Below, one piece after another: positions 1 to 20,044 of a stretch of DNA of 33,016 nt. The stretch's first letter is position 1. Every line of letters begins with the position of its first letter. The stretch is from Escherichia coli (GTDB lineage: Bacteria > Pseudomonadota > Gammaproteobacteria > Enterobacterales > Enterobacteriaceae), in NCBI RefSeq assembly GCF_003334385.1, contig NZ_QOWN01000050.1; one strand, written 5' to 3'. The notes under the pieces are model-generated. The model saw only the letters and a program-made list of their open reading frames with translations. It did no database searches and was not told the origin of the DNA. A program made the translations under genes and the position numbers.

Positions 1-2
1 GA

Positions 3-77
3 TGGCTGGGGTACCTGGATTCGAACCAGGGAATGCCGGTATCAAAAACCGGTGCCTTACCGCTTGGCGATACCCCA
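3..77 (-). tRNA. glnU: tRNA-Gln (anticodon UUG), third gene of the metT operon
   Basis: Reverse complement of 3..77 matches the E. coli tRNA-Gln sequence I recall, ending in CCA, with anticodon loop TTTTGAT (UUG). Its position after leuW in transcription order fits glnU. Confidence 0.9.
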
Positions 78-100
78 TCCGTACAACGCTTTCTGGTGAA

Positions 101-185
101 TGGTGCGGGAGGCGAGACTTGAACTCGCACACCTTGCGGCGCCAGAACCTAAATCTGGTGCGTCTACCAATTTCGCCACTCCCGC
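101..185 (-). tRNA. leuW: tRNA-Leu (anticodon UAG), 85 nt with long variable arm
   Basis: Reverse complement reads GCGGGAGTGGCGAAATTGGTAGACGCACCAGATTTAGGTTCTGG...CACCA, with anticodon UAG in a 7-nt loop. Confidence 0.9.
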
Positions 186-194
186 AAAAAAAGA

Positions 195-271
195 TGGTGG
201 CTACGACGGGATTCGAACCTGTGACCCCATCATTATGAGTGATGTGCTCTAACCAACTGAGCTACGTAGCC
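195..271 (-). tRNA. metT: elongator tRNA-Met (anticodon CAU)
   Basis: Reverse complement reads GGCTACGTAGCTCAGTTGGTTAGAGCACATCACTCATAATGATGG...GTAGCCACCA; first gene of the tRNA operon. Confidence 0.9.
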
Positions 272-304
272 ATCTTTTTTTTCGCGATACCTTATCGGCG
301 TTGC

Positions 305-345
305 GGGGCGCATTATGCGTATAGAGCCTTGCAGCGTCAACCTCT
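305..345 (-). promoter_or_regulatory. candidate sigma70 promoter of the metT tRNA operon with GC-rich discriminator
   Basis: On the minus strand: TTGACG (-35, + strand 335..340), a roughly 17-bp spacer, a CATAAT-like -10 (+ strand about 311..317), then GCGCCCCGC. An A/T-rich stretch lies upstream. This is the architecture typical of stringently controlled stable-RNA promoters. Confidence 0.5.
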
Positions 346-511
346 TTTTCAAGGAAAATTGCTCGAAAGTGACTGTTTGGTTAGGTTGCGAACAGCGTGG
401 CGCTATATTCGTCAATTATTGTTTACTTTGTGTTTTTTCCCACCCTACAGCCATTCTTTTGTCATACAGGATGAAATTCGGAATTTAACAATAGTGGTGG
501 GAAATTAATCT

Positions 512-613
512 ATGAAATACTGGCCTACAGTGATGAGTTGTCAAACAGTGATGTGGCAAACCCGGAACATTTCCTTACTGCATATCAGAATCAACAAGCA
601 CCTCAATAACTGA
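512..613 (+). other. candidate small ORF (33 codons) ending just before a terminator hairpin
   Basis: ATG at 512 is preceded by GGTGGG about 10 nt upstream; in-frame TGA at 611..613. Too short for the ORF track, and I do not recognise the product. Confidence 0.15.
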
Positions 614-615
614 AA

Positions 616-645
616 CAGCCCCGGATTTCACCGGGGCTGTTTCGC
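616..645. terminator. bidirectional rho-independent terminator downstream of asnB
   Basis: Perfect stem CAGCCCCGG / CCGGGGCTG with a 4-nt loop, flanked by A/T runs on both sides. Confidence 0.7.
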
Positions 646-650
646 ATTTC

Positions 651-2315
651 TTACTTATACGCCGACTGGTGAACACCAACCGCGCGACCAGACGGATCGT
701 CCATTTTCTTGAACGCTTCATCCCATTCGATCGCTTTAGCGGAAGAACAAGCGACGGAAGGACCGCCCGGCACGCACTCAGCGGCGCTCGGAAGCGGGAA
801 TAGTTCTTCAAAGATCTCCCGATACAAGTACGCTTCTTTAGAGGTTGGCGTGTTGTACGGGAAGCGGAAGCGGGCAGTTTCCAGTTGCTGATCAGAAACC
901 TGCTGCGCAGCCACTTCTTTCAGGGTGTCGATCCAACTGTAACCGACGCCATCGGAGAACTGCTCTTTCTGCCGCCAGGCCACGCTTGCAGGCAGATACG
1001 CTTCAAAACATTCACGCAGGATGTGTTTTTCCATTTTGCCGTTACCGCACATTTTATCCTGTGGGTTAATACGCATCGCCACATCAAGGAATTTTTTGTC
1101 GAGGAACGGAACGCGTGCTTCCACGCCCCAGGCTGACATCGCTTTGTTGGCACGCGCGCAGTCATACATATGCAGGGCCAGCAGTTTACGCACCGTCTCT
1201 TCATGCAGTTCTTTGGCATTCGGTGCTTTGTGGAAGTAAAGATAACCGCCGAACACTTCATCAGAACCTTCACCGGACAGCACCATTTTAATGCCCATCG
1301 CCTTGATCTTACGCGACATTAAATACATCGGTGTTGAAGCGCGAATAGTGGTCACATCATAAGTTTCGATGTGGTAAATCACGTCGCGGATGGCATCCAG
1401 ACCTTCCTGTACAGTGAAGTGAATTTCGTGATGCACCGTGCCCAGATGGTTTGCCACTTCCTGGGCTGCTTTCAGATCCGGTGAACCCGGCAGACCTACA
1501 GCAAAGGAGTGTAACTGCGGCCACCAGGCTTCAGAGCGTTCCTGATCTTCCACGCGACGGGCTGCGTATTTCTTGGTGATAGCGGAAATAATTGAGGAAT
1601 CCAGACCACCAGAAAGCAGCACACCGTAAGGCACATCAGACATCAGATGGCTTTTAACTGAATCTTCCAGTGCCTGACGCAGCTCGTTTTTGTCGGTCAC
1701 GTTATCTTTCACCGCATCGTAGTCGAACCAGTCGCGATGATAGTAAGAACGGATTTCGCCGTCCTGGCTCCACAAATAGCTCCCCGCCGGGAACTCTTTA
1801 ATCGTGCGGCAAACTGGCACCAGCGCTTTCATTTCTGAGGCCACATACAGCTGACCGTGTTCGTCATACCCCATATACAGTGGGATGATCCCCAGATGGT
1901 CGCGACCAATCAGGTAGGCATCTTTTTCGCTGTCGTACAGTGCAAAGGCAAACATGCCCTGCAAGTCGTCGAGAAATTCCGGCCCTTTTTCCTGATACAG
2001 CGCGAGGATCACTTCACAGTCAGACCCGGTCTGGAACTGGTAACGATCGCCATATTCGGCGCGCAATGCCTGGTGGTTGTAGATTTCACCGTTTACCGCC
2101 AGTACGTGGGTTTTTTGTTGGTTGTAGAGAGGTTGCGCCCCCGCGTTAACGTCAACAATTGACAGACGTTCGTGGGCGAGAATGGCGTTATCGCTGGCAT
2201 AAATACCGGACCAGTCCGGGCCACGATGACGCATCAGGCGTGACAGCTCGAGGGCTTTCTTACGCAGCTCAACTGCGTCTGTTTTGATATCGAATACGCC
2301 AAAAATTGAACACAT
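651..2315 (-). CDS. asnB: asparagine synthetase B (glutamine-hydrolysing), 554 aa
   Basis: The track ORF 651..2396 contains MCSIFGVFDIK from internal Met 28, which is the known AsnB N-terminus with the catalytic Cys2. ATG at 2313..2315. Confidence 0.95.
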   Translation of the reverse strand: MCSIFGVFDIKTDAVELRKKALELSRLMRHRGPDWSGIYASDNAILAHERLSIVDVNAGAQPLYNQQKTHVLAVNGEIYNHQALRAEYGDRYQFQTGSDCEVILALYQEKGPEFLDDLQGMFAFALYDSEKDAYLIGRDHLGIIPLYMGYDEHGQLYVASEMKALVPVCRTIKEFPAGSYLWSQDGEIRSYYHRDWFDYDAVKDNVTDKNELRQALEDSVKSHLMSDVPYGVLLSGGLDSSIISAITKKYAARRVEDQERSEAWWPQLHSFAVGLPGSPDLKAAQEVANHLGTVHHEIHFTVQEGLDAIRDVIYHIETYDVTTIRASTPMYLMSRKIKAMGIKMVLSGEGSDEVFGGYLYFHKAPNAKELHEETVRKLLALHMYDCARANKAMSAWGVEARVPFLDKKFLDVAMRINPQDKMCGNGKMEKHILRECFEAYLPASVAWRQKEQFSDGVGYSWIDTLKEVAAQQVSDQQLETARFRFPYNTPTSKEAYLYREIFEELFPLPSAAECVPGGPSVACSSAKAIEWDEAFKKMDDPSGRAVGVHQSAYK

Positions 2316-2562
2316 AACCTTCTCCGTTAACCTGGTATTTGTTGCTTGTTGTGTTTGCTTGTTTAAAAAAATGCCGCAAAGCAGCACTGTGCGCAAGCGA
2401 TTTGGCGGTGAAAAAATAAAAAACGTAATGGTGATTGTCGATTGGTGAAAAAAGGTCTGGTGTGAGGATATATTTATTGATGAATCGATAATTTTTAGCG
2501 GGTTTTATTGAATGTTTATATTTTACGGGGGCCAAATTGCTGACAAAGTGCGATTTGTTCAT

Positions 2563-2661
2563 GCCGGATGCGGCGTGAACGCCTTATCCGGCCTACAAAA
2601 GCATGAAAATTCAATATATTGCAGGAGCTGCGTAGGCCTGATAAGCGTAGCGCATCAGGCA
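2563..2661. repeat. RIP/BIME-type element (two inverted REP units around a central linker)
   Basis: GCCGGATGCGGCGTGAACGCCTTATCCGGCCTAC ... GCAATATATTG ... GTAGGCCTGATAAGCGTAGCGCATCAGGCA. Same family as the elements at 10974..11073 and 18401..18500, in inverted orientation. Confidence 0.8.
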
Positions 2662-2711
2662 GTTTGGCGTTTGTCATCAGAGCCAACCACGTCCGCAGAC
2701 GTGGTTGCTAT

Positions 2712-3464
2712 TCAGATAACGTCGATTTCAGCGACTGACGGGTAAATCCAGCTGGGGCGGAAAGGCATACTGTCGATATCGTCGAGCGACGAAACACCAG
2801 AAAGCACCAGAATCGTCTCCAGACCTGCCTGGAAGCCGGCCAGAATATCGGTACGCAGGTTATCGCCGACAATCACCGTTTCTTCCGAATGCGCCTGCAT
2901 TTTGTTTAATGCTGCGCGGATGATCCACGGGCTGGGCTTACCAACATAGAACGGTTTGCGCCCGGAGATTTTCTCAATCCCTGCACACAACGCGCCACAA
3001 GCGGGATAAAAACCGCGCCCGTGGGTGTCCGGATTGGTGGCGATAAAACGTGCACCGTTAGCGACGAAATAGGCTGCTTTATGCATCATGTCCCAGTTGT
3101 AGGAACGCGTTTCGCCAACAATCACGAAATCAGGGTTCACATCGGTAATAGTGAAACCGGCTTTGTACAGTTCATGAATCAGTGCGCCTTCGCCCACCAC
3201 ATACGCTTTCTTGCCTTCCTGGCGACGCAGGAAATCGGCAGTCGCCATCGCAGAGGTATAAAACACGCTGTCAGGTACATCGACACCTGCGGTGGCAAAG
3301 CGGTTCGCCAGATCTTGCCCAGTCTGCGAAGGATAGTTGGTCAGCAACACCAGCGGCAGGCCTTTATCCATAATCCCGTGCAAAAATTCCGCTGCACCCG
3401 GTACGGCGACGTTATCGTGCATCAGCACGCCGTCGATATCGCAAATTACATTTTTAATGGTCAT
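2712..3464 (-). CDS. nagD: HAD-family UMP/ribonucleotide phosphatase NagD/UmpH, 250 aa
   Basis: Full-length ORF beginning MTIKNVICDIDGVLMHDN, the HAD motif I (DxDGV); last gene of the nagBACD cluster. Confidence 0.9.
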   Translation of the reverse strand: MTIKNVICDIDGVLMHDNVAVPGAAEFLHGIMDKGLPLVLLTNYPSQTGQDLANRFATAGVDVPDSVFYTSAMATADFLRRQEGKKAYVVGEGALIHELYKAGFTITDVNPDFVIVGETRSYNWDMMHKAAYFVANGARFIATNPDTHGRGFYPACGALCAGIEKISGRKPFYVGKPSPWIIRAALNKMQAHSEETVIVGDNLRTDILAGFQAGLETILVLSGVSSLDDIDSMPFRPSWIYPSVAEIDVI

Positions 3465-3511
3465 GGACTACCCAGAATATTGACAACAATAAGCGCCACT
3501 ATAAAAGCACA

Positions 3512-4732
3512 TTAATTTTCCAGCAAATGCTGGAGCAAAATACCGTTGAGCATGGCGCGTTTTACCAGCGCAAAAGCGCCGATTGCCGAGCGGTGATCCA
3601 GCTCAGAACGTACCACCGGCAGATTAGTGCGAAACGCCTTCAGCGCCTGGGTATTAATGCAGCTTTCAATAGCAGGGAGCAGCACTTTATCGGCTTCGGT
3701 GATTTCACCGGCAATAACAATTTTTTGCGGATTAAATAAGTTGATAGCAATGGCGATGGTTTTACCCAGATGACGACCGACATACTCAATTACTTCCGAC
3801 GCCAGACTATCGCCTTTGTTCGCGGCTTTGCAGATAGTTTTGATGGTGCAGTCGTCCAGCGGCACGCGGCTCTGGTAGCCCTGCTTTAACAGATTCAACA
3901 CCCGTTGTTCAATGGCAGCGTTGGCAGCGATAGTTTCCAGGCAGCCAAAGTTGCCGCAGTGGCAGCGTTCACCCAGCGGTTCGACCTGAATATGGCCAAT
4001 TTCACCGACGTTGCCGTTGCGGCCAATAAAAATGCGCCCGTTAGAGATAATCCCGGCCCCGGTTCCGCGATGGACACGCACCAGAATGGAGTCTTCGCAA
4101 TCCTGACTTGCACCGAAGTAGTGCTCCGCCAGCGCCAGACTACGGATATCGTGACCAACGAAACAGGTCACTTTAAAACGTTCTTCCAGAGCTTCTACCA
4201 GCCCCCAGTTTTCTACCTGAATATGCGGCATGTAATGAATTTTGCCGCTGTCCGGGTCAACAAGCCCTGGCAGGATCACCGAAATCGCGATCAGCTCGCG
4301 CAGTTTGCGCTGGTAGCTATCAATAAACTGAGCAATGGCATTCAACAGGGCATGTTCCAGCGTTTGCTGGGTACGTTCCGGCAGCGGGTAATGTTCTTCT
4401 GCCAGCACTTTGCTGCTGAGATCAAACAGAGTGATGGTGGCGTCATGACGACCAAGCCGTACGCCGATTGCGTGGAAATTGCGGGTTTCGGTGACGATGG
4501 AGATAGCGCGGCGGCCCCCGGTGGAGGCCTGCTGATCAACTTCTTTGATCAGCCCGCGTTCGATAAGCTGACGCGTAATTTTGGTTACGCTGGCGGGGGC
4601 AAGCTGGCTTTGCTCGGCAATCTGAATCCGCGAGATTGGCCCGTACTGGTCAATCAGGCGATAAACCGCCGCGCTGTTAAGCTGTTTTACGAGATCAACA
4701 TTACCTATCTGAGCTTGTCCGCCTGGTGTCAT
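3512..4732 (-). CDS. nagC: ROK-family transcriptional repressor NagC, 406 aa
   Basis: 406-aa ORF with an N-terminal helix-turn-helix and the ROK sugar-kinase-like fold including the CHCGNFGC zinc motif; ATG at 4730..4732. Confidence 0.95.
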   Translation of the reverse strand: MTPGGQAQIGNVDLVKQLNSAAVYRLIDQYGPISRIQIAEQSQLAPASVTKITRQLIERGLIKEVDQQASTGGRRAISIVTETRNFHAIGVRLGRHDATITLFDLSSKVLAEEHYPLPERTQQTLEHALLNAIAQFIDSYQRKLRELIAISVILPGLVDPDSGKIHYMPHIQVENWGLVEALEERFKVTCFVGHDIRSLALAEHYFGASQDCEDSILVRVHRGTGAGIISNGRIFIGRNGNVGEIGHIQVEPLGERCHCGNFGCLETIAANAAIEQRVLNLLKQGYQSRVPLDDCTIKTICKAANKGDSLASEVIEYVGRHLGKTIAIAINLFNPQKIVIAGEITEADKVLLPAIESCINTQALKAFRTNLPVVRSELDHRSAIGAFALVKRAMLNGILLQHLLEN

Positions 4733-4740
4733 ACTTTCTC

Positions 4741-6749
<2,009 letters not shown>

Positions 6750-10942: not shown

Positions 10943-10973
10943 AGGAACAGACAAACAGTTTCAAACGCTAAAT

Positions 10974-11073
10974 TGCCTGATGCGCTACGCTTATCAGGCC
11001 TACATGATCTCTGCAATATATTGAGTTTGCGTGCTTTTGTAGGCCGGATAAGGCGTTCACGCCGCATCCGGCA
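10974..11073. repeat. RIP/BIME-type element
   Basis: TGCCTGATGCGCTACGCTTATCAGGCCTAC ... GCAATATATTGAG ... GTAGGCCGGATAAGGCGTTCACGCCGCATCCGGCA. Confidence 0.8.
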
Positions 11074-11093
11074 AGAAACAGCAAACAATCCAA

Positions 11094-18380: not shown

Positions 18381-18400
18381 ACGTATGACAAACACAGAAT

Positions 18401-18500
18401 TGCCTGATGCGCTACGCTTATCAGGCCTACGAGGATGGTGCAATATATTGAATTTAAGCGATTTTGTAGGCCGGATAAGGCGTTCACGCCGCATCCGGCA
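18401..18500. repeat. RIP/BIME-type element
   Basis: TGCCTGATGCGCTACGCTTATCAGGCCTAC ... GCAATATATTGAAT ... GTAGGCCGGATAAGGCGTTCACGCCGCATCCGGCA. Confidence 0.8.
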
Positions 18501-18549
18501 AAAACAACGAACACTTTGTCAACAAACTGAGTAGCTCAAGGAAATCCCA

Positions 18550-19856: not shown

Positions 19857-19989
19857 TTTCAAAGCATAAACCGATACCCAATACCGGTTTCAGTAATAAA
19901 ATGGCGAGGCCGGGCCGGATCCTGTTCCAGTTTTTGTCGCAGATGCCCCATATAATTACGCAAATAGTTGCTGTGTTCGATCGCGTTTA
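19857..19989 (-). pseudogene. 3' remnant of a kdpE-like response regulator (C-terminal winged-helix, about 44 codons)
   Basis: About 90 percent nucleotide identity to the 3' end of kdpE at 24195..24330, same orientation, in frame, with the stop conserved: LNAIEHSNYLRNYMGHLRQKLEQDPARPRHFITETGIGYRFML. No N-terminal receiver domain or start codon. I think K-12 annotates this as pseudogene ybfI but am not certain. Confidence 0.6.
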
Positions 19990-20044
19990 GACCCTACATC
20001 TGCCGGATGCGGCATAAATAACGAACTATTTGCCAACAAACAGA

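Follow-up and report, generated by a model that had tools for sequence, protein, structure and literature searches.

Which promoter drives the metT-leuW-glnU tRNA operon of Escherichia coli, and does it belong with the stable-RNA promoters, as a sequence-only reading had proposed when it predicted stringent and growth-rate control from a GC-rich discriminator? The element in question sits between asnB and the operon on the E. coli chromosome, in a window of 33,016 nt, by which we mean the whole stretch of DNA analysed. The window aligned with NC_000913.3 from 696863 to 729878 at 99.94% identity. Bases 1-4829 were identical to K-12 MG1655, and in this part window position x corresponds to MG1655 position x + 696862; the first difference was found at 4830, with 18 mismatches and 2 single-base gaps across the 33 kb. 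Of 5426 complete E. coli genomes, 5425 matched bases 1-900, with asnB, tRNA-Met, tRNA-Leu and tRNA-Gln annotated there, and several strains, including the K-12 derivative J53, were 100% identical over this segment. Locus and sequence are the same as those of the known promoter of the metT operon, once called the supB-E tRNA operon, of E. coli, and no difference was found. The RefSeq annotation holds no promoter feature at the metT upstream match.

Three tRNA genes of the operon were identified in the window (Table 1), and the rest of the seven-tRNA operon (glnW, metU, glnV and glnX) lies beyond the window start. All seven tRNAs have been reported on one full-length transcript that carries a 5' leader (PMC2241853). 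The entire elongator tRNA-Met of the cell, its sole tRNA-Leu(UAG) and the complete set of four tRNA-Gln genes depend on this one promoter, and its coupling to growth rate and starvation would therefore matter for translation capacity. Among transcription units, this one is also predicted to encode essential tRNAs (PMC11480407). On the other side of the intergenic region, a terminator scan detected a hairpin just 3' of the asnB stop, which is probably the asnB terminator and would insulate the tRNA operon from read-through.

The minus strand upstream of metT reads GAAAAAGAGG TTGACG CTGCAAGGCTCTATACG CATAAT GCGCCCCGC AACGCCGATAAGGTATCGCGAAAAAAAAGAT, then GGCTACG of metT. Over the window span 363-272, TTGACG is preceded by AGCAATTTTCCTTGAAAAAGAGG, the same TTGACG-to-AACGCCGATAAGGTATCGCGAAAAAAAAGAT stretch follows, and GGCTACGTAGC comes directly after. 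The string TTGACG, spacer, CATAAT and GCGCCCCGC named by the sequence-only reading is thus present letter for letter (340-335, 334-318, 317-312 and 311-303). Its distance of 30 to 40 nt upstream of metT also holds, as the mature tRNA begins 40 nt after the end of CATAAT and 31 nt after the end of GCGCCCCGC. The hexamers are near the sigma-70 sequences TTGACA and TATAAT and are spaced within 16-18 bp.

A promoter scan, by which the reading could be checked, gave a consensus score of 10/12 and no other site of such quality in the first 3 kb. Sites with at least 10/12 occurred 3 times on both strands of the window, compared with 4.5 ± 2.2 times in 200 dinucleotide shuffles, and a hexamer match at this level is by itself not beyond chance. 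When eight G/C bases were also required after a match of at least 10/12, shuffling gave just 0.02 sites per window, and GCGCCCCGC itself occurs a single time in the window. The position of the site, immediately before the first tRNA gene of the operon, lends it further weight. An extended -10 is absent, the bases at -15/-14 being AC. Another TTGACG at 415-410 was considered as a second promoter and rejected, as it has no -10 partner at 16-18 bp.

Table 1. Features at the metT promoter region. Coordinates refer to the window; identity is to the E. coli base among 112 distinct Enterobacterales upstream sequences.
Feature	Coordinates	Strand	Sequence and remarks	Identity
Hairpin just 3' of asnB stop	611..644	- (scan reported + strand)	14-bp stem; terminator scan; asnB end = 651	
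Candidate Fis site	379..393	-	GTTCGCAACCTAACC; matches GNNYRNNWNNYRNNC; centre 386 = -82 from G304	
UP-element-like segment, A/T-rich	342..363	-	AGCAATTTTCCTTGAAAAAGAG; -59..-38; includes A5 tract and T tract	
T tract	358-355	-		75-94%
A tract	349-345	-	A5	96-100%
G341 + TTGACG	341-335	-		96-100%
-35 hexamer	335..340	-	TTGACG; 5/6 vs TTGACA	
Spacer	318..334	-	CTGCAAGGCTCTATACG; 17 bp, optimal length; sequence varies among species	
Most of spacer	334-322	-		23-84%
-10 hexamer	312..317	-	CATAAT; 5/6 vs TATAAT	96-100%
Segment directly after CATAAT	303..311	-	GCGCCCCGC	
Discriminator, G+C-rich	305..311	-	GCGCCCC; C at second position after -10	96-100%
Discriminator and early leader	311-296	-	GCGCCCCGCAACGCCG	93-100%
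Transcription start	304..305	-	G304, second mapped position C305; dRNA-seq Class I site (PMC4681348)	
5' leader	272..304	-	GCAACGCCGAUAAGGUAUCGCGAAAAAAAAGAU; 33 nt	
metT, tRNA-Met(CAU)	195..271	-	ARAGORN and Rfam	
leuW, tRNA-Leu(UAG)	101..185	-	Operon gene 2; ARAGORN and Rfam	
glnU, tRNA-Gln(UUG)	3..77	-	Operon gene 3; ARAGORN and Rfam	

The start of transcription was taken from the dRNA-seq table of Romero et al. (PMC4681348; reference U00096.2), in which Class I denotes a TAP-enriched site at a leading edge of transcription. Its sole Class I entry for the interval from metT to asnB is on the reverse strand at 696390-696391. Coordinates were calibrated with the ompA and tyrT starts of the same table, both on the reverse strand, which showed that table positions equal NC_000913.3 positions minus 776. 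The classical 5' ends of both transcripts served as the reference for this purpose. The 133-nt 5' UTR of ompA, beginning with GCCAGGGG, corresponds to NC_000913.3 position 1020186 and to 1019410 in the table, and the tyrT precursor, beginning with pppGCUUCCCGAUAAG, corresponds to 1287665 and to 1286889-1286890 in the table. After calibration, the metT site fell at 697166-697167, equivalent to G304 and C305 of the window, 8 and 7 nt downstream of CATAAT. The start is therefore provisionally placed at G304 (and C305), within the 6-9 nt past the -10 expected of a primary sigma-70 5' end, from one dataset and a 1-nt calibration via the classical ompA and tyrT ends. A mapped start inconsistent with this -10 element had been named as grounds for rejecting the promoter; the calibrated Class I start, 7-8 nt after CATAAT, agrees with the -10 element.

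No coordinate near 697166 occurs in the Cappable-seq supplement of PMC4782308, and no metT start entry in the supplements of PMC3415461 and PMC6131387; the primer extension in PMC2241853 maps the secG-leuU start, not that of metT. A Class II site (TAP-enriched, without leading edge) at U00096.2 position 696311 corresponds to about window position 225, near position 47 of the metT tRNA, and is probably an artefact of a stable or modified tRNA rather than a start.

Transcription from G304 yields a short leader, and leader length was 27-34 nt in 51 of 52 distinct leaders. Precursors recognised by a probe to the 5' non-coding part build up in the RNase P mutant rnpA49, and RNase P cuts the 5' leader and the inter-tRNA spacers of the polycistronic precursor (PMC2241853). 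A sigma-70-type promoter with a mapped start drives the polycistronic tRNA precursor.

Out of 5426 complete E. coli genomes, 5425 contained the 129 nt upstream of metT, nearly always as a single copy (5428 places in total), and identity was 99% or higher in 4873. Beyond the species, metT-leuW junctions were scanned in species-representative genomes, and 120 loci were obtained from more than 30 Enterobacterales genera. These covered Enterobacteriaceae (including Escherichia, Salmonella, Citrobacter, Klebsiella and Enterobacter), other families (Serratia, Rahnella, Hafnia, Edwardsiella, Proteus, Morganella, Budvicia and Tatumella) and insect symbionts (Sodalis, Hamiltonella and Fukatsuia). Identity to the E. 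coli base was counted in the 112 distinct upstream sequences, which are related and do not represent independent events; the variable spacer served as an internal control for divergence. The hexamers were conserved at 96-100%, whereas most of the spacer fell to 23-84%, indicating purifying selection on the elements relative to the spacer. Exceptions within the spacer were T321 (100%) and C319/G318 (92-97%). The -35/-10 distance was within 16-18 bp, the range accepted by the anchoring pattern, in 112 of 112 distinct sequences. Invariant hexamers around a free-running spacer are the footprint expected of a sigma-70 promoter.

The sequence-only reading had also placed an A/T-rich element upstream of the -35. 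The segment 363-342 has an A+T content of 68%, compared with 49% in the window, and, read in the canonical register, agrees with the UP consensus at 11 of the 14 positions that the consensus specifies, a score that ranks it in the top 0.05% of window positions. The proposed upstream element was thus confirmed in composition and in register. Farther upstream, we found a candidate Fis site. The Fis consensus GNNYRNNWNNYRNNC is degenerate and matches the window 52 times. In 97 of the 112 distinct Enterobacterales sequences, the spacing between a match and TTGAC was unchanged, the 15-mers at this conserved position differed (GGTTATAAGCCAGAC, GTTCACAACCCAGAC, GATTATTATGCAGGC and others), and no other offset reached 8 Fis-consensus matches among the 112 sequences. 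A Fis site centred near -71 is typical of rrnB P1 and tyrT (Fis site I in tyrT), and the candidate centre at metT, -82, lies one helical turn beyond this position. A Fis-binding site approximately 70 nt upstream of the metT start has been stated (PMC9122604).

For comparison, the tyrT, rrnB P1, leuQ and argX promoters were read from MG1655. The metT promoter combines TTGACG, a 17-bp spacer and CATAAT with the discriminator GCGCCCCG; tyrT has TTTACA, 16 bp, TATGAT and likewise GCGCCCCG; rrnB P1 has TTGTCA, 16 bp, TATAAT and GCGCCACC; leuQ has TTGACG, 16 bp, TAGAAT and GCGCCTCC; and argX has TAGACA, 17 bp, TATTAT and CCACCCCC. With tyrT, metT shares an identical 11-nt block, ATGCGCCCCGC, extending from the end of the -10 through the discriminator. 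The tyrT start is at the same G with a preceding C in the same dRNA-seq table (PMC4681348). Additionally, the early tyrT leader carries the CCGATAAGG of the metT leader, and both promoters have A/T-rich upstream DNA, whereas the leaders differ in length (43 nt in tyrT, 33 nt in metT). Like metT, rrnB P1 has near-consensus hexamers, a C at the second position after the -10 and A/T-rich UP DNA adjoining the -35; its discriminator is close to that of metT, and its UP element is stronger. Transcription of rrnB P1 starts at an A, 9 nt after the -10. A second promoter and an antitermination leader lie downstream of rrnB P1; at metT, neither was seen.

The promoters of the tRNA operons argX-hisR-leuT-proM (pArgX) and leuQPV resemble metT in their G/C-rich discriminators, CCACCCCC and GCGCCTCC, but differ in details of the -35 and -10. 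Specifically, the leuQ -35 is the TTGACG of metT, and the upstream region (GCAATTTATTTAAAAAGGGAC) and early transcript (GCAACGGCGCTAAG) of argX resemble those of metT. At pArgX, DksA stimulates transcription without ppGpp (PMC5137449). The metT promoter drives a tRNA operon, has a GCGCC.CC-type discriminator and carries A/T-rich UP-like DNA at -40 to -60; by sequence, it clearly belongs with the stable-RNA group. The proposal of a stable-RNA-type promoter for the metT operon was accordingly upheld by the mapped start, the conserved footprint and a discriminator identical to that of tyrT and near those of rrnB P1 and leuQ.

Published data on regulation point in the same direction. In a regulator table, Fis is given as activator of metT-leuW-glnUW-metU-glnVX, and Lrp and ppGpp as negative effectors (PMC10100675). 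G/C-rich discriminators have been linked to supercoiling sensitivity and stringent control (PMC8422995). The single-strand-specific deaminase A3A acts in vivo on the GCG-CCC-CGC cytosines at metT (PMC9122604); deamination of these cytosines implies single-stranded DNA, which fits promoter melting at this place. A hairpin of the non-template strand around GCG-CCC-CGC is drawn in that work, and in our DNA folding this structure was not significant.

Conservation did not end at the start site. It ran past +1 through a nearly invariant GCAACGCCGAT(G)AAGG, and the first ~16 nt of the leader (GCAACGCCGAU(G)AAGG) were as conserved across Enterobacterales as the promoter. Parts of this sequence recur elsewhere, CCGATAAGG in the tyrT leader (L123, 2124-2166) and GCAACGnCGnTAAG in the argX leader (L127). 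In most species, single-sequence folding predicted a small hairpin that begins with the 5' nucleotide, and some loci (L005, L041 and L068) showed compensatory variants. RNAalifold returned no consensus structure for the leaders, and the E. coli leader fold was not better than shuffles (z = -0.9). These first ~16 nt might conceivably be a separate functional element of several enterobacterial tRNA-operon leaders, one that tunes promoter escape, pausing, protection of the 5' end or the kinetics of RNase P, an idea that we put forward as a long shot.

Considering these data, we are highly confident that the element is a stable-RNA sigma-70 promoter with its start at G304/C305, UP-like and candidate Fis elements and predicted rrnB-P1-like control. 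A real promoter with another mode of control, governed mainly by Fis and supercoiling, or by promoter-specific action of DksA/ppGpp as at pArgX, and with a G+C-rich discriminator that does not confer classical stringent or growth-rate control, seems unlikely to us. Such control would fit the dual role of DksA at the tRNA promoter pArgX (PMC5137449) and the initial transcribed sequence of metT, which resembles that of argX. It would also fit the finding that discriminator G/C content alone predicts supercoiling sensitivity, but the same work, with tyrT as its worked example, describes stable-RNA promoters as both supercoiling-sensitive and stringently controlled (PMC8422995), and metT has exactly the discriminator of tyrT. 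The listing of ppGpp as a negative effector of the operon (PMC10100675) also argues for rrnB-P1-like control. We infer stringent and growth-rate control of the metT promoter by analogy with other stable-RNA promoters, a well-founded view that agrees with PMC10100675 and PMC8422995. Much less work has been done on tRNA promoters than on rrnB P1, and, as pArgX illustrates, they need not copy it in every detail (PMC5137449).

The invariant block 311-289 could instead be conserved mainly for a 5' hairpin of the leader RNA or for a protein site acting in processing, stability or pausing, rather than as a discriminator. The extent of conservation well beyond +1, through GCAACGCCGAT.AAGG, speaks for this explanation, as do the sharing of CCGATAAGG with the tyrT leader and of GCAACGnCGnTAAG with the argX leader, and the 5'-terminal hairpin predicted in most species with its occasional compensatory variants; it is weakened by the missing RNAalifold consensus and the unremarkable z-score of the E. 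coli fold. Moreover, an RNA role cannot explain positions 311-305, because they precede the transcript, and we consider this account improbable. A chance match of the hexamers, with transcription of the operon coming instead from asnB read-through or a more distant upstream promoter, draws on the observation that matches of at least 10/12 are equally frequent in shuffled sequence. However, a shuffled window is expected to contain just 0.02 such sites with an all-G/C discriminator, the hexamers are conserved at 96-100% around a variable spacer, a hairpin follows asnB, and the sole Class I start mapped as far as asnB lies 7-8 nt past the -10. An origin of operon transcription in read-through or chance is effectively refuted, and we assign it next to no probability.

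For the stable-RNA promoter with rrnB-P1-like control, a working model can be outlined. By sequence, conservation and literature, the A/T-rich DNA from -59 to -38 would act as an UP element for the alpha C-terminal domains of RNA polymerase, and Fis near -82 would activate the promoter at high growth rate. By analogy with rrnB P1 and tyrT, on which established work is summarised in PMC8422995 and PMC5137449, GCGCCCC should be hard to melt, and the C at the second position after the -10 should contact sigma region 1.2 poorly. Because melting of the discriminator is costly and the sigma 1.2 contact weak, the open complex would be short-lived and, as at these two promoters, would depend on negative supercoiling and the initiating GTP. 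At high growth rate, the UP element and Fis might compensate by faster recruitment. On the same analogy, ppGpp/DksA is expected to inhibit the metT promoter selectively, and this inhibition would couple the output of tRNA-Met, tRNA-Leu(UAG) and tRNA-Gln to growth rate and amino-acid supply. The promoter was already known and its architecture is standard for stable-RNA promoters; our modest additions are the Enterobacterales footprint, the position-conserved Fis-consensus site at -82 and an early leader conserved like the promoter.

Several loci deviated from the common pattern. In the reduced genome of the secondary endosymbiont of Ctenarytaina eucalypti (L087), TTGACG, a 17-bp spacer and TAAAAT precede metT, the discriminator is A/T-richer (GCCAAGTC) and the leader is unrelated; a stringent-type discriminator may have been lost here naturally. 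In Enterobacter mori LMG 25706 (L063), the -10 reads CATAAG; the change affects the most critical base of the hexamer and reflects either a sequencing error or a down-mutation. Candidatus Fukatsuia symbiotica (L068) carries one extra T between CATAAT and GCGCTCCGC. Budvicia diplopodorum (L011) has two metT-leuW copies, each with its own promoter, and the discriminator of the second is GCGCTGCGC. An exact enterobacterial metT-leuW junction was also found in a contig labelled Chryseobacterium sp. 18061 (L102; Bacteroidota), which is probably a contamination of the assembly.

Elsewhere in the window, a repeat of 120-140 nt was present in three copies (2537-2677, 10962-11087 and 18385-18525), 85-91% identical and in mixed orientation. 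They occupy the intergenic regions asnB-umpH, glnS-chiZ and pgm-ybfP and look like ERIC/IRU elements; the first contains a match to Rfam ES036 (CssrF) at 2597-2639. Additionally, the annotated ybfI pseudogene (19858-20002) is approximately 90% identical to the 3' part of kdpE (24194-24338) and is a duplicated gene fragment about 4 kb from its source.
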